From a bacterium (GTDB taxonomy: Bacteria > Patescibacteriota > UBA1384 > 2-12-FULL-50-11), in contig JAJTYJ010000001.1 in NCBI GenBank assembly GCA_021463485.1, positions 1,378 through 65,377 on the forward strand: a DNA stretch of 64,000 bases, read 5' to 3'. The position numbers and the translations under genes were made by a program. The notes beneath the pieces are model-generated. The model was not told the DNA's origin and searched no databases. It was given only the letters and a program-made list of their open reading frames with translations. Each line of letters begins with the position of its first letter. The first letter of the stretch is position 1. Below are positions 1 to 13,569 of the stretch, one piece after another.

Positions 1-1035
1 TTTGGACCGAAAACGATCATGATATTACCCGGTGAAGAAGCAGAGAACGGCACTCCTAACATTACGGCAAACTTTGCCCCTTCAACGCTGTTTGTCGATG
101 ACATTATTTATCTTAGCCAGAACGCAAAATTAATCGATCAGCCAGTCGATTACGCTACTTTTATCGGTGGCCTAGTTTCTAAGGGCACAACAAAAATTAG
201 CGGTTTACCTGTTGGCATCACACCGGGAGCGGCTGATTTATTTAGCGTTGTCATAAAAGAGGGTGAAGGTATTTCTCAGGAAAACGTCGATAAAAAAGAA
301 AAAGTTATGGTTATTTCAAAAAATGCCGCGGAAAAACTGGGCGCTACCATCGGTGACGAACTCTCAATTGGTGCTAATAACTTTAAGCTGACCGGTGTAT
401 TTGAGATCGAACAAGAGCTAAACCTAACATCCAGTAGCGGAGATATGTTTCTAATACCTGTTACCGTTGCTAATGAGATCAACCAATCAGAGCAAGTTAA
501 TCGAGTAATTGTTTACGCAAAAGATATAAACGAGGTAGATAAGGCTCGTGAGGAAGTAAAGAATTTACTTACAGCCAAACACGGCTCCACTGATTTTACG
601 GTATTAAAACCGACTGATTTGCTCGAAACGATTAACCAAATTACTGATGTTTTAGCATATATGGTAGTTGGTATCGCTTCAATCTCGCTGCTAGTGGGTG
701 GGATCGGGATCTCAAATATTATGCTTGTAACCGTTGCTGAGCGAACTCGCGAGATCGGAATCCGGAAAGCCGTCGGCGCCACTGAAGGCGCAATTTTGCT
801 CCAATTTTTAATAGAGGCGGTGCTCCTAACAGTGATTGGCTCAGTTATCGGTCTTTTAATGGCCTACGGCACCTCTTTACTGGCAGCAAAATACTCGCCG
901 CTCGAACCGTTAATTACACTACAGACTATTGGGATCGCTTTGAGTATGGGTGGGATTGCCGGTATCGTCTTCGGGCTATTCCCGGCGATTCGCGCTGCTC
1001 GCAAGAACCCTGTCGAAGCGCTCCGATTCGAGTAA
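1..1035 (+). CDS. ABC transporter permease, FtsX/MacB-like (C-terminal part; 5' end lies outside the window)
   Basis: The ORF is open from base 1 in frame 1. It contains a large extracytoplasmic domain followed by the FtsX-type 4-TM bundle, with the motif 'VAERTREIGIRKAVGA', and a C-terminal 'NPVEALRFE'. Confidence 0.8.
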   Translation, partial: FGPKTIMILPGEEAENGTPNITANFAPSTLFVDDIIYLSQNAKLIDQPVDYATFIGGLVSKGTTKISGLPVGITPGAADLFSVVIKEGEGISQENVDKKEKVMVISKNAAEKLGATIGDELSIGANNFKLTGVFEIEQELNLTSSSGDMFLIPVTVANEINQSEQVNRVIVYAKDINEVDKAREEVKNLLTAKHGSTDFTVLKPTDLLETINQITDVLAYMVVGIASISLLVGGIGISNIMLVTVAERTREIGIRKAVGATEGAILLQFLIEAVLLTVIGSVIGLLMAYGTSLLAAKYSPLEPLITLQTIGIALSMGGIAGIVFGLFPAIRAARKNPVEALRFE

Positions 1036-1036
1036 A

Positions 1037-1813
1037 TTACTGAACGCTTGACGGTGGGGTCGATGGCGGCTGGTTATTACCTAATACCATATTCTCATCC
1101 ACTAACGTTGCTGGCGGATCTTGTACGACCACTTCTTCTAATGGTTGGGTAGCTGCGGCTGGCGCTGGTGGCACCTGAGCAGCGATAGGCTGCGCTGGAT
1201 CGTTCATATCGTGAAGCGTCGTCGATGATTCTTGGAGTTTCTTAACGCGTTTTCGCGTATCAGCGACTAGAATCAGAATTAAAACATCGAGCAACAATAG
1301 CGGGAAGAGTAAAATTGGCCACAACGTTCCGCCGCCAGTACTAAACACTCCGCTACCCAACGTTGTTTCTTGTTTAGACGCGCCAGCAGTATCGGTGGTG
1401 TCACCGAGCTGAACACCGGTACCGTTCGTGCTTGGAGCTGTTCCGGTGTTCGTACTACCGCTCCCTGTACCGGTTGAGCCGGGCTGTGTATTACTTGTCG
1501 TACCAGAGCCGGTTGTAGAGCCACTAGTATTACCTGTGGTTGAGTTAGTAGTGTTACTGTTTGTATTTGAGTTGGTAGTTGAGTTGCTCGTGCTATTGCT
1601 GGTTGTATTATTACTCGTGTTACCGGTGTTGCCAGTATTGTTATTGGTAGTTGTGCCGCAGTTTGGATCGGGTGATTCTTCCCCTTCAACTACAACCACG
1701 CACGGCTCAGTTGTGGTTGTGTTACTGTTGTTCGTTGATCCGCTACCAGTGCCTTGTGTTGTTTGCCCCTCACCACCTGGCTCAGTTGCCACCTCAGCTC
1801 GGAAGATCCTCAT
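1037..1813 (-). CDS. Ser/Thr/Asn-rich low-complexity envelope protein with a hydrophobic anchor segment
   Basis: The 258-aa ORF is dominated by T/S/N/G repeats followed by 'LWPILLFPLLLLDVLILILVADTRKRVKK' (TM plus basic tail). The in-frame upstream codons, up to the stop at 1907, encode 'LNNKLILPITAVAVAVAIIVFVFSS', a signal/TM-like segment with no ATG/TTG/GTG, so the start may be non-canonical. The opposite-strand ORF 1428..1910 looks like a complement shadow. Confidence 0.45.
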   Translation of the reverse strand: MRIFRAEVATEPGGEGQTTQGTGSGSTNNSNTTTTEPCVVVVEGEESPDPNCGTTTNNNTGNTGNTSNNTTSNSTSNSTTNSNTNSNTTNSTTGNTSGSTTGSGTTSNTQPGSTGTGSGSTNTGTAPSTNGTGVQLGDTTDTAGASKQETTLGSGVFSTGGGTLWPILLFPLLLLDVLILILVADTRKRVKKLQESSTTLHDMNDPAQPIAAQVPPAPAAATQPLEEVVVQDPPATLVDENMVLGNNQPPSTPPSSVQ

Positions 1814-1956
1814 TGAGGAGAATACAAAAACGATAATCGCAACTGCGACCGCTACGGCAGTGATTGGTAGTATTAATTTATTATTCAGTTCCCCCCTCGC
1901 ATTTTCTTAATGCTAACCAATCAATAACAATTAGACAAGCTTGGGGAGTTTTTATC

Positions 1957-1985
1957 TTGACGCTGTGTAAAGTTTACTTTACATT
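1957..1985 (+). promoter_or_regulatory. Sigma70-like promoter of the HTH-Hsp20 gene (-35 TTGACG, 17-nt spacer, -10 TACATT)
   Basis: TTGACG is at 1957-1962 and TACATT at 1980-1985, with an exact 17-nt spacer. The ATG follows at 1999, so the leader is very short. Confidence 0.55.
1966..1983 (+). promoter_or_regulatory. 18-bp perfect palindrome TGTAAAGT-tt-ACTTTACA in the promoter spacer, overlapping the -10
   Basis: The sequence reads directly as an inverted repeat with 8-bp arms and a 2-bp centre. A near-identical copy occurs in the dnaK promoter at 63294..63311. Confidence 0.6.
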
Positions 1986-1998
1986 ATTCCTAGAAACG

Positions 1999-2697
1999 AT
2001 GACAAAATTTCGGTTATTACTTCGAGAACTGCGGCAAGCGAACGACTTGAGCCAAGAAGAATTGGCTCGAGCACTTCAGGTATCGCGACAGTCGATTATC
2101 TCACTTGAGCGCGGGGAGTATCTACCGAGTATGCCGGTACTGATCTCGCTAATTGAGTTTTTCGACTGTCCGATCGACCAGCTGATCGACGGCGTCTCAC
2201 CGAAAAATAATCAACAATTTGTAAACCAAATCGAGAAAGGGGGTGAAAAGCAGATGCAACTAACGCCATGGAGTCCGTTTCAAGCGATTGATCATATGCA
2301 AGAAGAGATGAATAGTATGATCGAACGAACGTTCGGTCGCGGAGATTGGTCTAACGCTCTACAAGCAACGACCGGTGCGATGAACATTCACGAGAGCGAA
2401 AAAGAGTACGAGATCGAATTCCAGGTTCCGGGTTACACGGAAAAGGAAATTACAATCGAGATGACCGAGAATACCCTAACAGTTTCCGGCGCCAAAGAAG
2501 AGGAGAAAAAAGAGGGTAAAGATGTTGTTCGACGAGAATGGCAACACAGCCAATTCAGACGCTCTATCCGCTTTACCCACCCGATCAAAGAGGATAAAGT
2601 CGAGGCGAAAATGGAGAACGGTACGCTCAAAATCATCGCTCCAAAAATAGAGCCAACAAAACCAAAAGTAAAAAAGATCGAAGTTAAGAAAGGTTAG
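1999..2697 (+). CDS. Fusion protein: N-terminal XRE-family HTH domain plus full-length Hsp20/alpha-crystallin small heat-shock protein
   Basis: The N-terminus 'MTKFRLLLRELRQANDLSQEELARALQVSRQSIISLERGEYLPSMPVLISLIEFFDCPIDQL' is a classic Cro/C1-type HTH. Downstream, 'LTPWSPFQAIDHMQEEMNSMIER' matches the sHSP N-terminal region and is followed by an alpha-crystallin domain ('EIEFQVPGYTEKEITIEMTENTLTVSG...REWQHSQFRRSIRF...ENGTLKIIAPK'). The ORF track begins at 1864, but the ATG at 1999 sits right after the promoter. Confidence 0.8.
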   Translation: MTKFRLLLRELRQANDLSQEELARALQVSRQSIISLERGEYLPSMPVLISLIEFFDCPIDQLIDGVSPKNNQQFVNQIEKGGEKQMQLTPWSPFQAIDHMQEEMNSMIERTFGRGDWSNALQATTGAMNIHESEKEYEIEFQVPGYTEKEITIEMTENTLTVSGAKEEEKKEGKDVVRREWQHSQFRRSIRFTHPIKEDKVEAKMENGTLKIIAPKIEPTKPKVKKIEVKKG

Positions 2698-2716
2698 GAC
2701 CTAACAACTTCTAATG

Positions 2717-2741
2717 AAAAAGGCGCTCAGAGCGCCTTTTT
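2717..2741. terminator. Bidirectional rho-independent terminator
   Basis: aaaa-GGCGCTcagAGCGCC-ttttt lies between the convergent genes ending at 2697 (+) and 2742 (-). Confidence 0.6.
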
Positions 2742-3035
2742 CTATTGCGACTCTTCGAGTTGTTTCTGCCAGTCTTCTTTGTACGCTTCGGGATCACTAA
2801 TTACGCCGATACCGGGGATAAATCTAGTTGTGTAACTATACGTTTTTTCCCCTTTACGTTCTGCTTCCTCGATTGCTAATTTCCGCTCGATTATCATCGG
2901 CGATACTTCACCGTTTGAAGCAACTGGTTTTCGCACACTAAAATACTGGGTTGCCCCGATCATCAAGATAATTGCTCCGACCGCCGGGGCAATTGAAGAA
3001 AATCGTGTTAATGCGTCTACTACTTTCTCTTTCAT
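2742..3035 (-). CDS. Small single-TM protein, last gene of the secreted-paralog operon
   Basis: The 97-aa ORF abuts the stop of paralog A (3036). It has one hydrophobic segment, 'IAPAVGAIILMIGA'. Confidence 0.4.
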   Translation of the reverse strand: MKEKVVDALTRFSSIAPAVGAIILMIGATQYFSVRKPVASNGEVSPMIIERKLAIEEAERKGEKTYSYTTRFIPGIGVISDPEAYKEDWQKQLEESQ

Positions 3036-3626
3036 TTATTGGTATCTACCTTCAACTCGCCAGCGCAACGGAATCATGGCACCAGATTTCATAATAGTTC
3101 CTCCGTCAGTATTCTCATACTTACCGTGTGCCCAGCCGTAAATTCCTGTAGTGGAGATGTTATTTGTGTTGGCGTTATTCATTCCACCTAGCACACCCTG
3201 ACCCCAAGCGTAACCGTGATTCTGAACAAAAAGATCAGCAGAATCAGGGTTAATAAGCTCAAATGTCCAACTGGTATGGGCTTGATCACCTTCAAACGCA
3301 ACTGCCCACAAGTAGTCTCTTGCCATTTGGCTACCCGCGCCACAAAGACCGTAATTTCTGTAACAGTCCGGCAGCGCTGGGAGTTTCCAGGTTGAAATGT
3401 ATTTAGGGACAGAGTTCTCCTCGTAAGTTACCTGCCACTCACCCGGTCCAATTGCAAACTTTTTCTTTGTTGTGCCTAGTTCCGTTCCAGGGTTGTTATT
3501 GACGTTGATCGTTAACAACTTCATCGCTTGCCATACGGTGTGAGTTGGTACGGCGGCAGAACCGATTCCAGGCGCGATCAAAAGTAACAATGATAATGCG
3601 ACTAAAATACTCGATTTATTCTTCAT
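3036..3626 (-). CDS. Secreted Trp/Cys-containing protein, paralog A of an uncharacterised family
   Basis: It has a signal peptide, 'MKNKSSILVALSLLLLIAPGIGSA'. Family motifs are FAIGPGEW, TWKLPALPDCY, AWGQG, GIYGWAHGKY and IPLRWRV. It overlaps paralog B by 11 nt. Confidence 0.7.
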   Translation of the reverse strand: MKNKSSILVALSLLLLIAPGIGSAAVPTHTVWQAMKLLTINVNNNPGTELGTTKKKFAIGPGEWQVTYEENSVPKYISTWKLPALPDCYRNYGLCGAGSQMARDYLWAVAFEGDQAHTSWTFELINPDSADLFVQNHGYAWGQGVLGGMNNANTNNISTTGIYGWAHGKYENTDGGTIMKSGAMIPLRWRVEGRYQ

Positions 3627-4236
3627 AGCTTACTCCTGTGACATCCCAACGAAGAGGAATCATAACACCCGACCATACGAAACCACCACGATCGCAGTTA
3701 CAGTATCTGGCGTGTGACCAACCGTACGTTCCAGTAGCGATCACATTGTGACTGTTGTCACTATTTTTTCCTCCCAGTACTGCCGAGCCTCGTACGTGGC
3801 TACTAATGTTTGAGAATAAACCGGGATTTAATGGCTCCAGTTCCTGAAATGACCATCTCTGAGGATCGTTTGGATAGTCGGAATAGCTCGTTGCTAGTCC
3901 CCATAAATAGTTATTCACCAGAGCACCGCCTGGCTGGCAGGCAGCGCGACCAGCAGAGGTGTAACAATCTGGTAGCGCCGGAAGTTTCCAAGTTTCCTCG
4001 TAAATTGGGGTGTAGTTGCCACCCGATGCCTGCCGTTCATATTTTACGTACCACTCGGATGGACCAATCACAAACTGACGCTTAGTTGTCTCTAGTTCAC
4101 CGCCGCCGTAGCCGTTCGTGTTAACGACTAGCACTTTTTTTGTTTGCCAGGTGGAACTTATATCCTGAGCGTTGACCGTTGCTACATTGCTCAAAGATAG
4201 GAAGATAGCACCGGCTGCTAACAATAGTTTAATCAT
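3616..4236 (-). CDS. Secreted Trp/Cys-containing protein, paralog B
   Basis: Signal peptide plus FVIGPSEW, TWKLPALPDCY, GTYGWSHARY, GGFVWSG and IPLRWDVTG. The ATGA overlap with paralog C indicates translational coupling. Confidence 0.7.
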   Translation of the reverse strand: MIKLLLAAGAIFLSLSNVATVNAQDISSTWQTKKVLVVNTNGYGGGELETTKRQFVIGPSEWYVKYERQASGGNYTPIYEETWKLPALPDCYTSAGRAACQPGGALVNNYLWGLATSYSDYPNDPQRWSFQELEPLNPGLFSNISSHVRGSAVLGGKNSDNSHNVIATGTYGWSHARYCNCDRGGFVWSGVMIPLRWDVTGVSYEE

Positions 4237-4868
4237 AAAATATCACCACTTACCTTCCATTCAGTTGGTAATAGAAAGCCTGCCCATACAAAACCACCAC
4301 GTCCCCCAACATTGTAGCGACCATGAACCCATCCATATGCGCCCATAAGTGACAAATTATGAATGTTTCGACCGTCTTTTCCTGATATTGTTCCTTGTCC
4401 CCAAGCTCGACCGTTATCCCTGATAAATAGCGCGGGATCATCGGGATTCATTAACCCAAACTTCCAAGTTCTCGCCGGACAGCTAGAAACGTTGGTATCA
4501 CAAACTATTCCCCAAATAAATTTTGAAACGTTCGCACCGCCAGGACTACAGCTGGCAGCGTCAGCATAACAATCAGGCATACTAGGCAATGTCCAAGTTT
4601 CTCTGTACTTCTCTACACCACTTTCAGAGTATGATACTGTCCACTCACCTGGGCCAATCGCAAAGTTTCGTTTACTCCTGCCGAGTTCGTTACCGACATT
4701 ACCCTGAGTATCGATAGTTAAAACTTTCGTTGCTCGCCAATCTTCAACGACGTCCGGGGCGGTTTGTGCGCTAATTCGAGAACTATTTTGGTTCGAATAT
4801 ATAAGAAAAACACCAAGCGCAGCTAATATAAATCCGAGAGTATATTGCAGTATAACTTTCCCTCCCAT
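4233..4868 (-). CDS. Secreted or anchored Trp/Cys-containing protein, paralog C
   Basis: N-terminal signal anchor plus FAIGPGEW, TWTLPSMPDCY, GAYGWVHGRY and GGFVWAG. Confidence 0.7.
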   Translation of the reverse strand: MGGKVILQYTLGFILAALGVFLIYSNQNSSRISAQTAPDVVEDWRATKVLTIDTQGNVGNELGRSKRNFAIGPGEWTVSYSESGVEKYRETWTLPSMPDCYADAASCSPGGANVSKFIWGIVCDTNVSSCPARTWKFGLMNPDDPALFIRDNGRAWGQGTISGKDGRNIHNLSLMGAYGWVHGRYNVGGRGGFVWAGFLLPTEWKVSGDIL

Positions 4869-4911
4869 GTCTCTTTTAATACTGTCGGATTTTAATGATT
4901 AGTCAAGCGAG

Positions 4912-5490
4912 CTACTCTATAGTAATTGATTGAATACTGTCACCAACTGAGATTTGTTTGACAACATCCATACCACCGGTGACTTTGCCAAAAATCGTGT
5001 AATTCTTTGGTAGCGAGTCGTTGTCGGCGAGCATAATGAAAAACTGACTGCTATTGGTATTAGGCCCGCGATTAGCCATAGCCAGCACACCTTCTTTGTA
5101 CCCGTTTTTATACGACGGCGTGTCCTCGTTTAGCTCATCTTCGAACTCTGATCCGTAAATTGAGGCTCCGCCGGTACCGTTACCGTCCGGATCGCCGCCT
5201 TGAATAACAAAACCTGGCTCAACCCGGTGAAACGTTAAACCGTCGTAAAAGCCGTTCTTAGCAAGCGTTGCAAAGTTTGTTACCGTTTTCGGCGCGTCTT
5301 GTGGATAAAGCTCCAACCGGATATCACCTTTTTTTGTTTTAATAGTCGCCTTGGTTGCAGAAACTTGTTCAAATGTTGTTGGATCACCTGTCATTTTTTT
5401 AACGCCTCCTTGTTTATCTTCTGACTGCGGAATTAGTAAAAATACGCCAACCACCGCTATAACACCGATAATGATATGTGTAATTTTCAT
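4912..5490 (-). CDS. Cyclophilin-type peptidyl-prolyl cis-trans isomerase with N-terminal membrane anchor
   Basis: N-terminal TM 'IIIGVIAVVGVFLLIP' followed by cyclophilin motifs 'FHRVEPGFVIQGGDP', 'GGASIYGSEFEDE' and 'FFIM'. Confidence 0.85.
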   Translation of the reverse strand: MKITHIIIGVIAVVGVFLLIPQSEDKQGGVKKMTGDPTTFEQVSATKATIKTKKGDIRLELYPQDAPKTVTNFATLAKNGFYDGLTFHRVEPGFVIQGGDPDGNGTGGASIYGSEFEDELNEDTPSYKNGYKEGVLAMANRGPNTNSSQFFIMLADNDSLPKNYTIFGKVTGGMDVVKQISVGDSIQSITIE

Positions 5491-5508
5491 TGTGCGCCCG
5501 TTCAGGAT
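5491..5508. repeat. 18-nt direct copy of the tRNA-Val 3' end (TGTGCGCCCGTTCAGGAT)
   Basis: It is identical to 5558..5575, which covers the tRNA-Val 3' acceptor strand and T-arm. It lies immediately upstream of the cyclophilin start codon, 48 bp from the tRNA. Confidence 0.6.
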
Positions 5509-5559
5509 AGTCGACTAACGTCGCCTTCCTTCACTCTAATACTTTTTATGTTTGTCATG

Positions 5560-5631
5560 TGCGCCCGTTCAGGATCGAACTGAAGACCCCTTCCACGTCA
5601 AGGAAGTGCTCTACCGCTGAGCTACGGGCGC
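5560..5631 (-). tRNA. tRNA-Val (anticodon GAC)
   Basis: The minus-strand sequence 'GCGCCCGTAGCTCAGCGGTAGAGCACTTCCTTGACGTGGAAGGGGTCTTCAGTTCGATCCTGAACGGGCGCA' folds by hand as a cloverleaf: 7-bp acceptor, GCTC/GAGC D-stem, anticodon loop TTGACGT, T-loop TTCGATC. CCA is not encoded. Confidence 0.8.
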
Positions 5632-5683
5632 CTGGCTAATTAACCAGTTAATTTTACTGAAAAATTAGTAGCGTGTGAAGTTG

Positions 5684-6337
5684 TTAGTTCGTAACCGTCC
5701 CTGTAACAGTCCACTTAAGAGGCATTAGCGTTCCGGAACCTAGGAAGCGAGCTCTACTATCAAAACCTGGCTCGTACCAGTGTTGGAACGTGTACGCACC
5801 GCTTTGCATAATACATTCATCTTCGTCGCCATTTCTTGGCGAAGAAATACAGCTAACAGTCTTTTGAGTGCCGGTACCGCCGTTTAGACGATTTTTCGTG
5901 CTAGTAAAGTCGTTTGGCGCTCGAACAGCAAACGTATAAAGCATACTATTTGTGCCGCCAAGAGCATTCTGTTGCGTAAAGCAACCCGCCATTATCTCAG
6001 CCGTGTTAACACCGCTTATATCGCAGCCCTTTTCGTCAGTATGAGCAAGCATCTGGATATTGGTAATACTCGGACCCGCCCATGTTTCGGTGAAGGTTTT
6101 CGAGCCAACAGTACCGGTGACAGTCCAGCCCCAAACACCGATCCCCGCTTGACCAACTTGCGAACTACCAACACGAACGTCAGCAGTTAGGACATTATTG
6201 GCCGTCCACGTACTTGTATACGGCGTAGTGCCCTGCGCAGAGGTTTTAACGTCCCCCTTAGACACGTAGAGCATCGCAGCGCCAGCCAGCGCCAAAACAA
6301 AACCAATTCCCATATGTAACAACGTTGTTCGATTCAT
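5684..6337 (-). CDS. Secreted protein, divergent fourth member (paralog D) of the same family
   Basis: Signal anchor 'MNRTTLLHMGIGFVLALAGAAMLYV'. It shares 'TW.ANNVLTADV' with 'TWQTKKVLVVNT' in the others, and its C-terminal 'GTLMPLKWTVTGTV' matches their 'MIPLRWDVTG'. Confidence 0.6.
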   Translation of the reverse strand: MNRTTLLHMGIGFVLALAGAAMLYVSKGDVKTSAQGTTPYTSTWTANNVLTADVRVGSSQVGQAGIGVWGWTVTGTVGSKTFTETWAGPSITNIQMLAHTDEKGCDISGVNTAEIMAGCFTQQNALGGTNSMLYTFAVRAPNDFTSTKNRLNGGTGTQKTVSCISSPRNGDEDECIMQSGAYTFQHWYEPGFDSRARFLGSGTLMPLKWTVTGTVTN

Positions 6338-6388
6338 ACTTTTATATTCACGACAATCGGCATGGCTGTCAACTTTTGATTACGAAGA

Positions 6389-6417
6389 TTGATTTTCGAT
6401 CCTGTTAAACGTAAAAT
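6389..6417 (+). promoter_or_regulatory. Promoter of tRNA-Glu (-35 TTGATT, 17 nt, -10 TAAAAT)
   Basis: TTGATT at 6389-6394 and TAAAAT at 6412-6417; the tRNA begins 10 nt downstream. Confidence 0.5.
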
Positions 6418-6426
6418 ATTGCTATT

Positions 6427-6500
6427 GGTCCCGTCGTCTAGTGGCCTAGGACGCCTGGTTTTCATCCAGGAAATCACGGGTTCGACTCCCGTCGGGACCG
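6427..6500 (+). tRNA. tRNA-Glu (anticodon UUC)
   Basis: 'GGTCCCGTCGTCTAGTGGCCTAGGACGCCTGGTTTTCATCCAGGAAATCACGGGTTCGACTCCCGTCGGGACCG' gives a full cloverleaf by hand with anticodon loop TTTTCAT. CCA is not encoded. Confidence 0.85.
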
Positions 6501-6530
6501 CAAACAGAATACACACCCGTGTTGCCTTGC

Positions 6531-6561
6531 AATCACGGAAACGACTCCCATTGGGACAGCA
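6531..6561 (+). pseudogene. Degenerate direct copy of the 3' third of tRNA-Glu
   Basis: 'AATCACGGAAACGACTCCCATTGGGACAGCA' versus the tRNA 3' portion 'AATCACGGGTTCGACTCCCGTCGGGACCGCA' (about 6 mismatches in 31 nt). It lies 30 nt downstream of the tRNA. Confidence 0.5.
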
Positions 6562-6567
6562 AAAAAA

Positions 6568-6600
6568 TGTGGCTAACCTAGTTAGCCACATTCGGGTTTT
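6568..6600. terminator. Bidirectional rho-independent terminator (10-bp stem TGTGGCTAAC/GTTAGCCACA)
   Basis: The hairpin is flanked by AAAAAAA upstream and TTCGGGTTTTT downstream. The stop codon of the minus-strand gene lies inside the stem. Confidence 0.7.
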
Positions 6601-7007
6601 TCGGAAGTCTGTTGATCGATTCGCAGGTCTAACTCGTGTTCGCAGTTAGCAGCTGCCTCATCACAAGCTTCGATAGCGAGTCGAGTTGGCAGGGACAAAT
6701 TACGAGTTTCGATTATGCGCTGTTTTTCACGAATAGCCTGTGCCTTAAGCTCTCCGAGAATTGCCTTTACACCCTCGTCCTGCTCAAACTGAATTTTAAG
6801 GTCGATCTCAATGAGCCGCTCATCGAGGATCTTGATTCGAGCGTCATCTCTGAGATCAATCTCCGCCGCGCGCTCTGAGTATTGCTTGTTCTTGTGCCTA
6901 TTCAGAATCCATAACACACCAGCAATTGCCGTAGAGGTAATTCCGATCCCCCACAACATCTTGGTATCGAGTTTCTTTCGCTCTATCTCACGCTTACTCA
7001 AGTACAA
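6582..7007 (-). CDS. Hypothetical membrane-anchored coiled-coil protein
   Basis: The 141-aa ORF has one TM ('MLWGIGITSTAIAGVLWIL') and a charged helical remainder. Confidence 0.45.
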   Translation of the reverse strand: MYLSKREIERKKLDTKMLWGIGITSTAIAGVLWILNRHKNKQYSERAAEIDLRDDARIKILDERLIEIDLKIQFEQDEGVKAILGELKAQAIREKQRIIETRNLSLPTRLAIEACDEAAANCEHELDLRIDQQTSEKPECG

Positions 7008-7063
7008 ATACCTCCAATAAGGAATGTGTTGATATTAGCATTAAAATACGCAACGCTACATAT

Positions 7064-7708
7064 ATGTCTAAACGCGGTTTCACCTTAATTGAGGTACTAA
7101 CAACAATTACGATTATCGGAATTTTAGTCGCTATTACGACGATGGTTTATAGTAGCTCGCTTAAACGTTCTCGAGACGGTCAACGTAAAACGGACTTAGA
7201 CAGTATCAAAAACGCGTTAGAGCAATACTATCTCGATAATCGTAGTTACCCGTCGTTTAACAGCACTCGTGGCAATATTTACAACGCTCGCTGGCAATTC
7301 GAAGCTGGTTTAGTTAGTAATTGCGCTTCAAATCGGGCAGCGCTAGCGCCGCTGATTCTCCCTACGATACCCGAGGATCCTATTAATAAGCTACCGGCCT
7401 CAGCAGGCGGATGTAGCGAACTAACTGGTAATAATATGTCCGGAGAATATATCTACTTTGTCGCTGGGAACACCATACCGCCAAACAGCGATCCGCGCCC
7501 AAAAGCAGGCTATTATCTTTTGGCAAAAATGGAAACAGCACCTAGCGTTAATATTAATAATAACGGCGCTAACGATTCGTCATCGATTACCTTTATCCGC
7601 AATAGAGTCCAGGGATGGGGATATGATTTATCGGGAATAGTAATCGGTAACGGAATAAGCGGATCAGTCACTCACAATTACTTCGTTAACTCTAAGCCAA
7701 ACAACTAG
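7064..7708 (+). CDS. Type IV pilin / GspG-ComGC-like major pseudopilin
   Basis: Prepilin N-terminus 'MSKRGFTLIEVLTTITIIGILVAI', followed by the characteristic 'RDGQRKTDLDSIKNALEQYYLDNRSYP' motif. Confidence 0.8.
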   Translation: MSKRGFTLIEVLTTITIIGILVAITTMVYSSSLKRSRDGQRKTDLDSIKNALEQYYLDNRSYPSFNSTRGNIYNARWQFEAGLVSNCASNRAALAPLILPTIPEDPINKLPASAGGCSELTGNNMSGEYIYFVAGNTIPPNSDPRPKAGYYLLAKMETAPSVNINNNGANDSSSITFIRNRVQGWGYDLSGIVIGNGISGSVTHNYFVNSKPNN

Positions 7709-9219
7709 TCTTTCACTAGCACACCGCTAGGAATCGCGGTTTTTTTGGTGACGTTAAAGACGGTAAATGGCTTATTAAATAACATACGCGTCTGCGAATC
7801 GATCGCCGGAATCGCCGAGAAAAATATGCCGCTAACCGGAAGCAGGATTGGCGCTAACAACCACTCTTTAATAATTGTAAGAATGTAGACCGAGCGCTTA
7901 CCAGGACGTGGTGGCACTAGTAGAGATGCCACGAGCATGTTGGCGATCATACCAGTCCACGCTGCTATCAGAAATGTTCTATAAACAGTAGGAAAGTTAT
8001 AACCGAGCACACTATCTCGAAAATCCGGGTTCACGACTATCGGTAGCCAACCGATTAGCAAAATAAACGACTGGGTAGCAAGCGAGTAGTGGGATTCGAA
8101 CAGCCGTAAAAATTGCAGCCATTTGTAGAAAAACGGAATTCTAGGATTACCAAAAGAATGCCGAAAGACGTACGGAACGTCGGAAACCCCCCAAAACCAG
8201 CGACGACGTTGAAGATACTGCTCGCGAAACGTGTCCATAATATCTTCGCCCTGAACTGCGTCCATATAAACCGGCACAAATAGCGGAACCACGTGGTGAT
8301 TGCCGTCAAATCTGAAGTACGAACGCCAGTACTGATGCCCATCTTCAACCACCGTCGCAACCGACCAGAAATCTGTTTGTACTAGGGCTTCGAAACTCTG
8401 AGCGTGGGCGGCGAAGTTACGCGAGTAGTGCGGTCGCATCGCCTGTATGAGTTGCCAGAATGATGAGCCGAGTGCTGTCAGTTTTACCGGTAACGGCACT
8501 TGCCAGATATTATTGAAAAACATCGGCAGGGGCTGGAAGCTTTTATGAATTGGGTCTGGGTCGGCGCAGTACGACCAAGTAAGGTTGGCAAAATAGTCAC
8601 GATCGACCCGGTTATCGGCGTCGAGTGTTGTGAGAATTGCGTCAGAATACTTAATTTTTTTCTCATCAAGATATTCCTTAACCCGACGCGCCGCCCAGGT
8701 AATGTTTGGCCCCTTGCCGCGAACTTCACCTTCAATATCTGCTGGGTGGCTGGTAGCCATAAAATGGAAAAACGCATGTTCGTACTCGTGCGTTAAGATC
8801 TTGGCATACTCCGGCGCTAACTCTTTTTCACGCCCTTCAAACGCCGCAACAACAATCAACCGATCAGCTGGGTAGTTGCTCATTTTTATGGCATCGATGG
8901 TGTGCCGAAGAATTGAGATATCCTCTTTATACGTTGGCACAATGGCGACGTGGTAAAACCTATTCTGTGCCTCGGGATAATCGTTGTTGAGTTTAGTTAG
9001 CCAATCAATTTTACGCTCACGGTTATATCTAGCAAAACCGGCTAGTAAGTATCCAGTGATGAGAAAGACTTTAATTAACCAGTAGATCGCGTAAAGCAAG
9101 ACTAGCATCGTTAGGACAGGCGGGTTAAAAATTGCAAGCAATATTAATCCAGTTAACGTCGTCCAGGTTAGTAATCCCGGAATAATCTCCCAAACTCGGC
9201 TTCGTTGATACCCCAGCAT
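7705..9219 (-). CDS. Processive family-2 glycosyltransferase (cellulose/chitin-synthase-like membrane GT)
   Basis: Multi-TM N- and C-terminal regions flank a GT2 core with 'ILTTLDADN' and the Q-x-x-R-W motif 'QRRRWFWG'. Confidence 0.75.
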   Translation of the reverse strand: MLGYQRSRVWEIIPGLLTWTTLTGLILLAIFNPPVLTMLVLLYAIYWLIKVFLITGYLLAGFARYNRERKIDWLTKLNNDYPEAQNRFYHVAIVPTYKEDISILRHTIDAIKMSNYPADRLIVVAAFEGREKELAPEYAKILTHEYEHAFFHFMATSHPADIEGEVRGKGPNITWAARRVKEYLDEKKIKYSDAILTTLDADNRVDRDYFANLTWSYCADPDPIHKSFQPLPMFFNNIWQVPLPVKLTALGSSFWQLIQAMRPHYSRNFAAHAQSFEALVQTDFWSVATVVEDGHQYWRSYFRFDGNHHVVPLFVPVYMDAVQGEDIMDTFREQYLQRRRWFWGVSDVPYVFRHSFGNPRIPFFYKWLQFLRLFESHYSLATQSFILLIGWLPIVVNPDFRDSVLGYNFPTVYRTFLIAAWTGMIANMLVASLLVPPRPGKRSVYILTIIKEWLLAPILLPVSGIFFSAIPAIDSQTRMLFNKPFTVFNVTKKTAIPSGVLVKD

Positions 9220-9221
9220 AT

Positions 9222-9563
9222 TTAGATAATGGCAGATCGGGCGACGATGTAGTACCCGATCACCGCCAGTTCAAGCATGATGATGATGGTTAAAAGTAGC
9301 GTTTTAACCGCAGGCATTTGACGATATAACATGAAAAATACCACGCTATCCACGATAAACAGACCGAGCGAGTAGTAGTAAACCGACATTCCGGCCGCTA
9401 ATTGAGTACGGGCAAACAAACCAGTACCAAAAATAACCACAGCAGCAACAAGCCAAACAATTAACGCCTTTCTTTCTGGGATTGGTTGGGAAGAGTACCA
9501 GCTTCGCAGTCGAGTTATCATCCTTTGTTTCCACAGGATACTCGAGAATCTCGAGAATACCAA
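9222..9563 (-). CDS. Small polytopic membrane protein (possibly GtrA-like GT accessory protein)
   Basis: 113 aa with 3-4 hydrophobic helices, lying directly between the GT2 gene and the large surface protein gene. Confidence 0.35.
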   Translation of the reverse strand: MVFSRFSSILWKQRMITRLRSWYSSQPIPERKALIVWLVAAVVIFGTGLFARTQLAAGMSVYYYSLGLFIVDSVVFFMLYRQMPAVKTLLLTIIIMLELAVIGYYIVARSAII

Positions 9564-9574
9564 GAGCTATTTAA

Positions 9575-11614
9575 CTAGTACCTACTAAATAGACGCTGGA
9601 ATCTGCGGCCATTTGACGCCACGAGCAAGCCGAGCGAGCTTAATAGCACCGTGACAATATTCTGATGTTGGCTCGGTATCGAGCCAACAGGCTCCGGATT
9701 ACTGGTTTGGTTGGCGATCGGAGTAATTTTTTTAGTCGCGGCTGCCACTACAGCTGGCGCTGGAGTTGATTTTGAGACGGCCGGTTGAGTAGTTCTTTTA
9801 ACTGGTGCGGGTTGTGGTTTCGGCGACTCAGTTTTAGTTGTTTGCACCCTGCTAACTACGACTGATTCAGGAAATACCCAGGTCTCCACCGCCTCGCTGG
9901 CTGAATTCCAGTCGACGATCGCCGAAAACTGTATCGAGTCCCCCACGCTTAAGTATTTTTTACTCTCAGTTAGATGCGCTTTAATCCGCGCCAACTGAGA
10001 GCTAAGTGTAAAATAATCGCTCTCAACGTCGGTAGCTGTACTATTGAGCGCTACTTTTTCACCGAGTCGTTGCTGGAGTTCGTCTGACATTGAGACGTCC
10101 GCCGGATCGATAGTAGCAATCCCTCCAATTATCGCGTCATCTGGTGCGTCGATAATTATTCTTTTCGTTTGACTCGAGCTTAGCTCGCCGGTTACGAGCG
10201 CTGTTTTATCTTTAATATTTGGGATGACACCCTTGGTTCTACTTAAAAATACTTGAATACCAGCTGTTTGATCTTGTAGGTAAAATGCTTCGTCAGAAAC
10301 CTGCCCCTGATCGGCCGTCACAACACCAGATACCTCAAGGAGCGTCCCCGCTAACGCCAGACGCGCCTCACGAACAGAGAGTTGATGCGTTGGTTTCGTC
10401 GGAAGGGTTGCCCTAATCCAGCTAGTGAGCGTTGCCGTTCGATACAGATTGGGGGCCAAGCTGCTGTTTAGTAGTAGCAGAAAAACCTCTTGATTATGCT
10501 CCAGCAACGCTTTGAATTTTGCCGATCGAGCCCAAGAGCCATTACGCAGCGAAAAGCTTAGGCCATCTGCTGAGAACTGGATATCAGCGCTTTCGTATTT
10601 CCATAGCACAACACCACTACTTAGTTTATTAGCACGGTCGTAACCCGCCGAGATTGTAGCGGGCAGCCAACTGCCGAATTCTGTCGATAGCCAATGTTCG
10701 CTCCCGCTTTGAAAATACAGCCAGTTTGCACCTTCGACCGCCACTAATTCACCGCCCTCAGTTGGAGCCGCAGTTAGCTCTGGAATAGCCCGCCCGTAGT
10801 CTAACTCGTGTAATCGGCCTTCTATCTCTAGAAATACTCTACTCCCCAATGTCCTAGCAGAGAGTATCGGTGAGGAAATCGAGAGAGTGAGTTCGATCAG
10901 TTCGTTCGGCGTCAGAATTACGACGATAACGATATCAGTTTTCCCAACAAATACCGAGAGCGTGTCGGAGCTAGACAAGAGTGATAATTGGGCGCTGCTT
11001 AGCTGAATGAAGGTGTTGCCAGTAGAAAGCTGAAAGAGTTTGCCGTCACAAACGACTGTTGGCAACAGTGCAGTTACGCGAGTAACTTCTAAGCAATCTA
11101 ACTCGTCTAAGTTACTCCAGGCTTCCCCAGCCCAACCGAAAACCGTCACTTTACTAGCCTGTAGATCAAGATAATAAAATTGGTCGCTAGATAGATAAAA
11201 CTGATCTAATTTTGATCCGACAATCGGTTCTGTTATTTCAGTAAATTCACTCCCAGCATAAAACAGTATCTTATTGTTTGTCCGAACCAATAACGGTGCC
11301 TGGCGGCTATACTCCAGTATCGGCTCATCCATTAACCCGGGCACAGGATAATAACCGAGACCATCCTTTGATCGAAGTAGTAATTTCTCTCCGATCCTAT
11401 CCACCACAACAAATAGTTCCCCATTAATTAAGAACTGCTCTAAAACCGTCCCGTTAATAACAGCGAGCTGAAACGGCTTCGAATTTGCCCGTAAGCGATA
11501 CTGTTTTTCGCCAGCTTTGATCACTAGCTTATTTTCAACTCTTTCTAAATCGGCCGCCAACGAGACAGTTGGGAGAAAAAGAAAAAGGATGAAGAGCCAA
11601 ACTTGCCGCTTCAT
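9575..11614 (-). CDS. Large secreted surface protein with Pro-rich stalk and C-terminal TM anchor
   Basis: Signal peptide 'MKRQVWLFILFLFLPTVSLAAD', a Pro/Thr/Ser-rich linker near the C-terminus, and a final 'IVTVLLSSLGLLVASNGRRFQRLFSRY' hydrophobic segment with basic tail. Confidence 0.55.
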   Translation of the reverse strand: MKRQVWLFILFLFLPTVSLAADLERVENKLVIKAGEKQYRLRANSKPFQLAVINGTVLEQFLINGELFVVVDRIGEKLLLRSKDGLGYYPVPGLMDEPILEYSRQAPLLVRTNNKILFYAGSEFTEITEPIVGSKLDQFYLSSDQFYYLDLQASKVTVFGWAGEAWSNLDELDCLEVTRVTALLPTVVCDGKLFQLSTGNTFIQLSSAQLSLLSSSDTLSVFVGKTDIVIVVILTPNELIELTLSISSPILSARTLGSRVFLEIEGRLHELDYGRAIPELTAAPTEGGELVAVEGANWLYFQSGSEHWLSTEFGSWLPATISAGYDRANKLSSGVVLWKYESADIQFSADGLSFSLRNGSWARSAKFKALLEHNQEVFLLLLNSSLAPNLYRTATLTSWIRATLPTKPTHQLSVREARLALAGTLLEVSGVVTADQGQVSDEAFYLQDQTAGIQVFLSRTKGVIPNIKDKTALVTGELSSSQTKRIIIDAPDDAIIGGIATIDPADVSMSDELQQRLGEKVALNSTATDVESDYFTLSSQLARIKAHLTESKKYLSVGDSIQFSAIVDWNSASEAVETWVFPESVVVSRVQTTKTESPKPQPAPVKRTTQPAVSKSTPAPAVVAAATKKITPIANQTSNPEPVGSIPSQHQNIVTVLLSSLGLLVASNGRRFQRLFSRY

Positions 11615-12207
11615 CCTTCTTCGCCAACCAACGCCCGGTGCATCTCGAGGATCACGCGGGCAAGTCGATTCGGGTCGGGTACATCGGTGATAGTAAAGTA
11701 ACCTTGTAAGCCTGGTTTGTGCGGATCATCCGTGGTGCCGCCGCCCGCAGTTTCAACGATGAGTAAGCCGTAATTAAAGAAGCTTTGTAGAAACCCAGTA
11801 ACCTCAGCCGAGACGTTTTGAACTTGTTTTAACGATAGCTCAGAGGTTTTACGACTCAATAGCCCTTCTTGAGACACGTTAATTAGTCGCTCGTTGGTGA
11901 TAAAGATAATGTCGTAATAAAAATTAATCCACGAACCAAACAGAAACGTTAGCAGAAAGATGTAATAACCAGACAATAGCACGGTAATAATGGGAACGAA
12001 GTCCGACACTCCGTTAGTAAAGCCGATCCCGATCGCAAACAACAGAAAAAGTGGGAAGAGTCCCATCGCTAATACAATTAGTAGCGTTGTTAAAAAGCCG
12101 GCCCAGTGATGTCGCACGGCGTACTTAATTTCTTCTCCAGGATGAAGGTTAAGATACAAAAACGCTGGGTCGTTACTGTTTATATGTTCTTCGATTAGAT
12201 GCGGCAT
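11611..12207 (-). CDS. Membrane protein with bacterial PH domain (YdbS/YdbT-like, bPH_2)
   Basis: Two TM helices followed by 'FITNERLINVSQEGLLSRKTSELSLKQVQNV...YGLLIVETAGGG', which is typical of the DUF304/bPH_2 fold. Confidence 0.55.
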   Translation of the reverse strand: MPHLIEEHINSNDPAFLYLNLHPGEEIKYAVRHHWAGFLTTLLIVLAMGLFPLFLLFAIGIGFTNGVSDFVPIITVLLSGYYIFLLTFLFGSWINFYYDIIFITNERLINVSQEGLLSRKTSELSLKQVQNVSAEVTGFLQSFFNYGLLIVETAGGGTTDDPHKPGLQGYFTITDVPDPNRLARVILEMHRALVGEEG

Positions 12208-12398
12208 TACTTAATCCCGATATAAATACCGCTAAATATCAATATCAATAGCACCAAGAGTATATGTGTCGATAATACCGGTATCGAGGCATCGCCGGGC
12301 AAGCGGTACTTAAAAACCTGAAAAAAGTACAGCAAATTTACCACAAGCATAATCGCTAAAAATAGACCGTAGCCAATTAAGATGTAGCTATTAAGCAT
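12207..12398 (-). CDS. Small two-helix membrane protein
   Basis: 63-aa hydrophobic ORF in an ATGA overlap with the bPH gene. Confidence 0.3.
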   Translation of the reverse strand: MLNSYILIGYGLFLAIMLVVNLLYFFQVFKYRLPGDASIPVLSTHILLVLLILIFSGIYIGIK

Positions 12399-12399
12399 T

Positions 12400-13569
12400 T
12401 TACGGGCGGATGTATCGCGGTGTTCCCCAATTGCTTGGGTTTATTCTCCGCTGCGAGTATTTTTTAGCCGGACTCCAGTTATATTCCGAAACCAAGATAT
12501 CGCTTGACGAGTAGACAGCTTCGACAACCGCAACGTGTCCCCATTCGTCACCCGGGAATAGCGGTCGGTTCCAGGACACGACGTCACCGACTCGAGGCAA
12601 CCCGCCGTACTGGACTTTATACCCTTGATCTGTGGCTAGCGCCGGCCAGTTGTATGCACTACCGCTACCGGGTCTGGTGTTATTAAATGGTACTCCGTGT
12701 ATCTGAAGGAACTTCCATGCAGCATACGATGTACACTGACAAGTGTAGTACAGCCAGTTATCTACACGATCACAGCTACCTGCCCATGGGTATCCTCCTG
12801 TGCCACCGGAGTTAGTAAATCCGCCAGCAGCAAGACGCGCCTGGTAGATATCGTTACTAATTTGTGCAGATTGTTTTTTAATTTGCTCTAATAGTTCCTC
12901 ATATTTCGCCTGCTCACCCTGGGTTTGGTTGAGAAGGTAATTCTTTTGGTTTTTCTGACTCGTTAGCGTACCCCTTGATCGATCAAGCTCTTGTCGGAGG
13001 GTTTCGAGGCTTGCCTTTTGGCTTTCACTATCTGTTTTCTTCTTTTCGAGATCGGTCTTTAACGCGTTAACGGTGTCGATATTTTTTCGCAGATCAGTTT
13101 GAATCGCTTGGATATACTCCGCTTGCGAGAGCGCTTCTTCAAGATTAGGGCTCTGGAGTAATAACTCCATCGTACTAGTTTGTGAGAGCTGGTAGAGATT
13201 TACGTATGCGCCCTTGAGTTTAGCCGACAAGACATCAAGCTCAGTCTGTTGCTTCTGGATATCTTGAATCAAAAGATTAATAACACTATTTGTTGCCGCG
13301 ATTTGCTCTTCGGTGTTTTGAATTCGGCTTGAAGTATAACTAATGTCTCCATCCAGATCTCCAATCAACTCTCGCAAGTTACTTGCTTCTCGTTTTTTCT
13401 GCTCAAGGGCTTTTCGGTTTTGCTCTTCTTTTCTCTTTAATTCTGCTTGACGCCTTAGTAGCTCGTCGAGCGTCTCAGCTTGCGCGCTCATCGGCGCGAG
13501 CGTTGCAATTCCAAGCGTTAGTACGAGAAAAAAGCTAATAAGTCGCACAGCTAACGATTTACTCATCAT
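12400..13569 (-). CDS. PcsB-like coiled-coil peptidoglycan hydrolase with C-terminal CHAP domain
   Basis: Signal peptide, long coiled-coil and a C-terminal CHAP domain ('CQCTSYAAWKF...GHVAVVEAV'). It lies immediately downstream of ftsE-ftsX. The start is placed at the internal ATG (13569) after an AGGA motif, because the longer ORF would overlap ftsX. Confidence 0.75.
   Translation of the reverse strand: MMSKSLAVRLISFFLVLTLGIATLAPMSAQAETLDELLRRQAELKRKEEQNRKALEQKKREASNLRELIGDLDGDISYTSSRIQNTEEQIAATNSVINLLIQDIQKQQTELDVLSAKLKGAYVNLYQLSQTSTMELLLQSPNLEEALSQAEYIQAIQTDLRKNIDTVNALKTDLEKKKTDSESQKASLETLRQELDRSRGTLTSQKNQKNYLLNQTQGEQAKYEELLEQIKKQSAQISNDIYQARLAAGGFTNSGGTGGYPWAGSCDRVDNWLYYTCQCTSYAAWKFLQIHGVPFNNTRPGSGSAYNWPALATDQGYKVQYGGLPRVGDVVSWNRPLFPGDEWGHVAVVEAVYSSSDILVSEYNWSPAKKYSQRRINPSNWGTPRYIRP

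Follow-up and report, generated by a model that had tools for sequence, protein, structure and literature searches.

What are the small exported proteins encoded in tandem at this patescibacterial locus, and what might they do for the cell that carries them? We examined a 64,000-nucleotide (nt) stretch of contig JAJTYJ010000001.1 (hereafter the window, whose numbering gives all coordinates unless another contig is named) together with related metagenome contigs, labelled L001-L022. A sequence-only reading of the window had singled out three tightly coupled genes and a divergent fourth member, here called paralogs C, B, A and D (Table 1), but was silent on a fifth relevant gene, which encodes a single-pass membrane protein of 97 amino acids (aa) directly after A. 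Our analysis leads to a tentative answer, that the trio and its small neighbour are an undescribed envelope module restricted to Patescibacteria, made of one to three exported all-beta proteins of ~19 kDa and a single-pass partner of ~95 aa.

The four paralogs form a coherent family. Pairwise identity among A, B and C is 39–42% (C against A, BLASTP E=3e-51), and a check of the open reading frames (ORFs) reproduced the coordinates, the sizes of 196–211 aa and the overlaps of 4 nt (C/B) and 11 nt (B/A) first reported for the trio. D, which lies across tRNA-Val, is a true but distant homolog, as had been proposed (27% identity to C, E=3e-17), and a family hidden Markov model (HMM) matched exactly four members among window ORFs of at least 50 aa. 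The sequence blocks that the sequence-only reading had listed as shared do exist, but most are common to two of the three tandem proteins, not to all three: (A/R)WGQG is missing from B and GGFVW from A, and C carries LPTEW in place of IPLRW. Across the family, the invariant or near-invariant residues (C numbering: W44, A46, G72, W76, V78, E90, W92, P95, G176, Y178, P201, W204, V206 and G208) make up a hydrophobic, Gly and Pro pattern of Trp, Gly, Pro, Val and one Glu, and the conserved positions of the alignment hold no catalytic-looking or polar constellation. They look like a structural core and not a catalytic site, which makes an enzymatic role less likely than one in binding or structure.

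Export was assessed by rule, with a 15-aa window of mean Kyte-Doolittle hydropathy of at least 1.6 as the hydrophobic segment and an AXA-like site 2–16 aa before the conserved Trp as the cleavage site. All 109 family members have a hydrophobic N-terminus (preceded by Lys or Arg in 102), 106 of the 109 have an AXA-like site, and the same number have an even count of mature Cys (2, 4 or 6). In the window, the signal peptides originally noticed were predicted as N-terminal hydrophobic segments in all four proteins; A, B and D also have an AXA-type site by rule, while the site of C (Ile-Ser-Ala↓Gln) was read by eye, with an Ile at -3 that falls outside the pattern. Taken together, the leaders, cleavage sites and even Cys counts are those expected of Sec-exported, disulfide-bonded extracytoplasmic proteins. 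For a signal peptide, the leader shows unusual conservation, with a small-x6-Gly pattern (Gly in 63/105 and 81/109) and Leu at fixed positions, and Ala-Gln is conserved at the putative cleavage site. Members of the C and D types have long N-terminal helices, whereas A and B have short classical signal peptides. The paralogs lack a class III (prepilin) leader with the N-methylation motif PF07963; N_methyl occurs only in a separate pilin gene nearby.

The family is rare in sequence searches, and no source gives a name to any member. Word-indexed searching of 5.8 billion proteins turned up 19 relatives. When 1.84 billion representatives were searched exhaustively with HMMER, 144 matched at E<=1e-3, of which 96 reached E<=1e-10 and 19 reached E<=1e-30; almost all are full-length matches of 200–260 aa. 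Pfam had no match for A, B or C at E<=1 and only DUF6113 for D (E=0.052; 13.7 bits against a cut-off of 27), and the full set of 109 members gave nothing but a single spurious match to Fst_toxin (E=0.008). NCBIfam and PHROGs had no match for the paralogs, and PDB sequences none even at E<=10. A scan of a genome collection with a narrow D-type alignment had as its sole match 'Patescibacteria group bacterium BroJett034', which supports the patescibacterial setting suggested at the outset; other sources of the family are groundwater, reactor and soil-type metagenomes. The literature on comparable families of the candidate phyla radiation (CPR) offered nothing specific.

The predicted structure is equally distinctive. 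AlphaFold2 modelled C from the 109-sequence alignment with high confidence (predicted local distance difference test, pLDDT, 93.6; predicted TM-score, pTM, 0.78), placing an N-terminal helix at residues 3–25, followed by a domain of ~11 beta-strands and three short helices. Foldseek found nothing in the whole PDB at E<=1e-3 (TM-score at most 0.17 among the 50 best matches listed) and no match in BFVD. On this evidence the C fold has no solved relative and is probably a new fold. The description of the family as beta-rich with no assignable known fold is therefore upheld, at least for C, which matched no housekeeping family or solved fold. The accompanying guess at a lectin- or toxin-like domain drew no structural or sequence match to either, although a binding function is compatible with this result.

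The small gene is what makes the locus recognizable as a unit. Its product consists of an N-terminal transmembrane (TM) helix and a conserved ~45-aa domain with the motif ER-x2-AI-x-EA-x3-G-x3-Y-x-[FY]-x3-F-x-PG-x-G. Neither it nor its homologs had a significant match in Pfam, NCBIfam or PHROGs; a possible resemblance to PepSY-type helix/hairpin domains finds no match in Pfam. The small protein also served as a query against metagenome contigs (this fetched L013-L018), and all fetched loci were annotated by HMM. A small homolog lies directly downstream of a paralog in the window and in L001/2, L003, L006-8, L010 (twice), L011, L012, L013/14, L016, L017, L018, L020, L021 and L022. Contigs L015 and L019 were set aside as uninformative because they start too near the small gene. 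Since the arrangement recurs in every informative contig, we regard the paralog or paralogs and the small protein as one module.

The number and order of subunits within this module vary. The small gene accompanies one paralog in L016, L018, L022 and an extra module of L010, two in L003, L010 and L013, and three in the window, L020 and L021, while L011, L012 and L017 have the order paralog-small-paralog. The window's order, C-B-A-small, is mirrored in L020 both by leader type (long, short, short) and by best BLAST match (C, B, A), which suggests that the three-gene arrangement is old and its subunits differentiated; in the distant L021 the long-leader paralog comes third rather than first. D-type genes, which sit between the two tRNAs, are not accompanied by a small gene of their own. 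A 373-aa database protein (P0016, L012 245-1366) that resembled a paralog-small fusion was rejected as such, because its DNA contains two in-frame TAG codons that the gene call had read as Gln; we kept it as evidence of adjacency only. It also serves as a caution on database-derived 'fusions' in CPR contigs. In a model of the read-through product, built from a paralog-only alignment, the beta domain is confident and the small domain is predicted, with moderate confidence, as helix, beta-hairpin and helix (pLDDT ~77–85).

Comparison of close strains revealed replacement of whole cassettes. Relative to L003, the window's DNA is ~91% identical over 1-2822 and 4910-12400, and nothing aligns over 2822-4910, a slot that in L003, L010 and L013 holds two paralogs of a fifth type (D2) and a different small gene. 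Among strains whose flank proteins are 90–100% identical, D is 66–67% identical, the small protein 44–49%, and the relatives of A, B and C in the slot 28–32%. L006 has an extra D2 copy, L010 has its extra paralog-small module beside tRNA-Glu, and the number of paralogs per locus ranges from 1 to 5. The D ortholog of L013 (3256-3905) contains an in-frame stop and a frameshift, and L014 has the same truncated ORF; D is likely a pseudogene in both, amid flanks 91–99% identical to the window's. Content thus differs between close strains, as the sequence-only reading had anticipated, while the family itself occupies the site in every relative examined.

Within alleles, the picture is one of constraint. 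A, B, C, D and D2 are separate orthogroups, and the first four are old. A orthologs in L006/L002 are 85–90% identical and B orthologs 76–82%. Ratios of nonsynonymous to synonymous divergence (dN/dS, NG86, between strains) were 0.044 (A), 0.029 (C), 0.046 (D) and 0.035 (the neighbouring cyclophilin), with B and L002 comparisons saturated at synonymous sites. These values indicate strong purifying selection on A, C and D, and positive selection was rejected for these genes and the cyclophilin. Diversification focused on loops was also rejected: variable sites among C orthologs showed no enrichment outside strands (42% vs 35%, Fisher p=0.35), while entropy across the whole family was higher outside strands than within them (3.0 vs 2.4 bits). 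The idea of rapidly diversifying paralogs accordingly gives way to one of old orthogroups under constraint, whose three-paralog operons recur in distant contigs. Synonymous divergence is mosaic along the locus (0.03 for the small gene, ~0.3–0.5 for the flanks, and ~1.2 or saturated for A, B and C), which indicates recombination between deep allelic lineages.

The genes around the module keep a stable order: the 504-aa protein, pilin, tRNA-Glu, paralogs, tRNA-Val, cyclophilin, HTH-HSP20 and MacB/FtsX. This synteny holds even where the paralogs are only ~20–35% identical to the window's (the cyclophilin, where measured, is 62–69% identical). On the minus strand, the order of transcription is D, tRNA-Val, cyclophilin, C, B, A and the 97-aa ORF. 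The membrane-anchored cyclophilin of the sequence-only reading was confirmed by a PF00160 match over residues 49-184 (E=9.8e-46; 156 bits against a cut-off of 21.7) behind an N-terminal hydrophobic segment, and its gene precedes C on the same strand at a distance of 43 nt. A cyclophilin gene occurs within three genes of the module in every related locus that is long enough; the neighbouring cyclophilin of L020 (154 aa) has no anchor. As for the block said to be bracketed by tRNA-Val and tRNA-Glu, both tRNAs are present, but only D lies between them; the trio sits between the cyclophilin gene and the convergent HTH-HSP20 gene.

Table 1 Features of the locus in window coordinates.
Feature	Position	Strand	Evidence or remark
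MacB/FtsX-type permease	19-1035
258-aa protein with a Thr/Asn/Ser/Gly-rich low-complexity stretch, a hydrophobic segment and a Pro-rich tail	1037-1813
XRE-HTH/HSP20 fusion gene, convergent	1999-2697 (ORF 1864-2697, probable start 1999)	+	HSP20 E=3e-20, HTH_3 E=7e-16
Small partner, 97 aa, single-pass membrane protein	2742-3035	-	ORF; start ATG directly follows the stop codon of A
Paralog A, 196 aa, short classical signal peptide, 2 mature Cys	3036-3626	-	Family HMM E=2e-47
Paralog B, 206 aa, short classical signal peptide ending VNA↓Q	3616-4236	-	Family HMM E=8e-47
Paralog C, 211 aa, long Gly-containing N-terminal helix, ISA↓Q, 4 Cys	4233-4868	-	Protein modelled
Cyclophilin-type peptidyl-prolyl isomerase, N-terminal TM anchor	4912-5490	-	PF00160
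Exact 18-nt copy of tRNA-Val 3' end	5491-5508		Closes 67-nt insert
tRNA-Val(GAC), conserved locus landmark	5559-5631	-
Paralog D, 217 aa, divergent 'core' type, long Gly-containing N-terminal helix, TSA↓Q, 4 conserved Cys	5684-6337	-	Family HMM E=3e-61
tRNA-Glu(UUC), conserved locus landmark	6427-6501	+
Degenerate copy (22/28) of tRNA-Glu 3' end	6534-6561	+	33 nt downstream of tRNA
Type IV pilin gene (N_methyl), orphan	7064-7708		Pfam
504-aa multi-pass membrane protein, faint GT2/chitin- or cellulose-synthase similarity	7705-9219
679-aa exported protein	9575-11614

Several of these neighbours merit comment in their own right. The HTH-HSP20 gene adjoins the cassette slot in every locus and marks its fixed boundary; we count it as context and do not claim it for the module. 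The joining of an XRE-type helix-turn-helix to an HSP20/alpha-crystallin domain is an unusual architecture. In distant relatives, the next gene after the small one, encoded on its strand, is that of a polysaccharide deacetylase (PF01522; L011 9797-10804, L020 9586-10467); the window's module has no such gene. The end of the 504-aa gene overlaps the end of the pilin gene; this pair is syntenic in all relatives, and the 504-aa protein is 99–100% conserved between strains. Two other genes differ among strains: the 258-aa protein is 76–93% identical (67% over about half its length in L002), and the 679-aa exported protein is 91–92% identical in L003 and L010 and missing from L006.

Our data are tentatively best accounted for by a lineage-specific, strain-variable surface assembly, in which exported beta-proteins would be tethered by membrane helices. 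The paralogs would leave the cytoplasm through Sec, as their leaders suggest, and fold outside the membrane, possibly aided by the anchored cyclophilin, a link made plausible by the conserved proximity of the genes. The recurrence of multi-paralog operons suggests that different paralogs may form a hetero-oligomer at the cell surface. The small partner might tether this structure together with the Gly-bearing, Gly-zipper-like N-terminal helices of the C and D types, whose conserved pattern hints that they are perhaps retained. The structure would face outside, towards a host cell, phage or competitors, and such exposure would explain why cassettes are exchanged, duplicated and lost amid near-identical flanks while purifying selection acts inside alleles. 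A more specific version, in which a hetero-oligomeric structure peculiar to Patescibacteria changes host-cell or phage specificity when subunit cassettes are swapped between co-occurring strains, seems to us unlikely as it stands.

A number of observations pull in the other direction. The deacetylase gene and tRNA-Val stand between module and cyclophilin in L011 and L020, and the adjacency of both cyclophilin and pilin may reflect general synteny in one lineage. Nearby envelope genes are as variable as the paralogs: the FtsX permease is 99% identical in L003/L013 and 52–54% in L006/L010/L002, without tracking the paralog cassette, and a CHAP protein is 68–77% identical, a mosaic that points to regional rather than family-specific variability. 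The small gene of the window is 98.6% identical to that of L006 at the nucleotide level and paralog A 82.8%; their histories differ, and the two are not strictly co-inherited. The positive-inside rule gives an ambiguous topology for the small protein (sequences read by eye), and the read-through model is uninformative on docking (pTM 0.60, with linker and TM segment below 50). The comparison behind the novelty of the fold covered the PDB and BFVD.

One alternative is that the paralogs are released rather than tethered, as cleaved soluble binding proteins, effectors or bacteriocin-like toxins directed at the host bacterium or at competitors, with the small protein acting in immunity, export or maturation. 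The near-universal AXA-type sites with their conserved Ala-Gln would suit cleavage, the paralogs have no C-terminal anchor, a small membrane protein immediately downstream occupies the classic position of an immunity gene, and replacement of cassettes between close strains is typical of toxin/immunity loci. Immunity proteins should, however, diversify along with their toxins, and the opposite is seen here: the small protein appears more strongly conserved in its C-terminal domain than the paralogs are (alignment read by eye), and its overall identity to the L003-type copy is 44–49%, against 28–32% for the paralogs. Moreover, a single small gene serves one to three paralogs, the window and L006 combine a near-identical small gene with diverged paralogs, D goes without a small partner of its own, and the family offers neither a polar or catalytic constellation nor a match to a toxin fold. 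We consider release of this kind doubtful.

Another possibility, which we also rate as unlikely, is that these are housekeeping envelope proteins, structural or biogenesis factors that recognize no partner and whose variation is a by-product of a recombination hot spot beside two tRNA genes. Deep synteny and strong purifying selection are what such a role would predict, as is the envelope-rich neighbourhood (polysaccharide deacetylase, the GT-like 504-aa protein, PMT/GT2, CHAP and FtsX), and adjacent unrelated genes are equally mosaic (54 vs 99% for FtsX, as well as the CHAP values given above). A fixed essential role is nonetheless difficult to reconcile with the pseudogene state of D in two assemblies, with the range in copy number, and with the replacement of whole subfamilies by one another in a single slot.

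The pilin gene raises a further alternative, that the paralogs are accessory components of a type IV pilus, such as adhesins at its tip or along its shaft that act together with the pilin encoded divergently from them. An N_methyl pilin of 201–214 aa lies beyond tRNA-Glu in every long contig, and type IV pili are reported to drive episymbiosis in cultivated Saccharibacteria (e.g. PMC9894109). The Sec-type leaders of the paralogs, which are not of class III, argue against this association, as does an operon without pilus assembly genes, and the adjacency may be a matter of synteny only; a role in the pilus thus appears improbable.

The tRNA genes themselves bear on how the locus arose. Duplications of the 3' end at both tRNAs, as described in the sequence-only reading, were recovered, exact for tRNA-Val and degenerate for tRNA-Glu. 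The last 18 nt of tRNA-Val recur exactly right before the cyclophilin ATG, where 0.07 matches would be expected by chance; the 67-nt insert that the copy closes is shared by L003 and L006 and absent from L001 and L002, where the tRNA is directly adjacent to the cyclophilin start codon. The T-arm variants of the tRNA and of its downstream copy differ in L010, suggesting that a recombination junction lies within the tRNA. The copy of the tRNA-Glu 3' end (T-arm and acceptor) matches at 25/28 positions in L010 (9740-9767), compared with 22/28 in the window, and in L020 it follows that genome's own tRNA variant; an att scar, a processing signal and a termination signal are candidate purposes. The copies stand 33–50 nt from their tRNAs and enclose no genes, and they may mark old recombination or integration junctions. 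A mobile genomic island integrated at the tRNA genes, as implied by the earlier description of an accessory-like, tRNA-flanked block, would draw on these copies, on a 1.9-kb segment of L010 (paralog, small gene and a 210-aa ORF) just past the tRNA-Glu copy and on a serine recombinase farther off in L001, but it is highly improbable, and a mobile or phage origin was rejected, given that no integrase or recombinase ORF or domain occurs at window 1-12000, that GC is flat across the locus (0.43–0.50), that the copies do not flank the gene block, that gene order is kept across deep divergence, and that neither the paralogs nor the small protein have relatives in 2.9 million viral contigs.

Among known systems, the favoured surface assembly invites comparison with operons of exported beta-rich proteins. 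The WxL/Csc clusters of Firmicutes (PF13731, DUF916, DUF3324) encode several paralogous, Sec-exported, beta-rich proteins of ~200–250 aa together with a small membrane- or wall-anchored partner. The present locus resembles them in its multi-paralog exported operon, its small membrane partner and a Gram-positive-type envelope, and the Trp motif of WxL has a counterpart near the C-terminus here, MPL-x-W-x-V-x-G. It differs in that none of the 109 members matches WxL PF13731 or, apart from the spurious Fst_toxin match, any other Pfam model, in having neither an LPXTG protein nor a DUF916 partner (its neighbours are cyclophilin, HTH-HSP20 and pilin), and in that its partner is a different, unnamed 95-aa protein and its organisms are Patescibacteria. 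In the TasA/TapA system (Peptidase_M73), exported beta-rich fibre subunits are encoded as paralogs in one operon, with a separate small protein proposed as tether; similar subunit size, operon paralogs and a separate small tether candidate are found here as well.

Two further parallels concern single genes. Membrane-anchored cyclophilin foldases (PF00160) provide a precedent for a TM-anchored domain whose gene lies upstream of client-like exported proteins, which here carry the invariant P95 and P201; the likeness is limited by the unanchored cyclophilin of L020 and by its separation from the module in L011 and L020, and the paralogs are putative clients. The hypervariable surface gene of a Gracilibacterium, whose variation has been read as pressure on a surface or attachment function (PMC6851277), is likewise a CPR gene for an exported protein that has a membrane segment at its N-terminus, and its local variation lies far above the genomic background. 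That gene varies through repeats within the gene (PMC6851277), whereas here whole cassettes are replaced, duplicated or lost with purifying selection inside alleles. The family and module, though undescribed, thus belong to a known category, the variable exported or surface cassettes of host-dependent bacteria.

How Patescibacteria recognize, attach to and exploit their hosts is largely unknown beyond type IV pili, and most of their exported proteins are unannotated. The module is a concrete candidate in this respect: it is compact, conserved in position, has a confidently predicted fold, and is swapped between near-identical strains. Swapping of this kind is what one would expect, at the population level, of recognition or receptor molecules that are exposed. 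The family offers structural biologists a probable new fold, and its cassettes give ecologists a strain marker, one that might follow the specificity for host or phage. Should the proteins turn out to be plain envelope housekeeping, they would still constitute an undescribed family worth a Pfam entry; should the hetero-oligomer with swapped specificity prove true, it would represent a new class of recognition apparatus for ultrasmall episymbionts.

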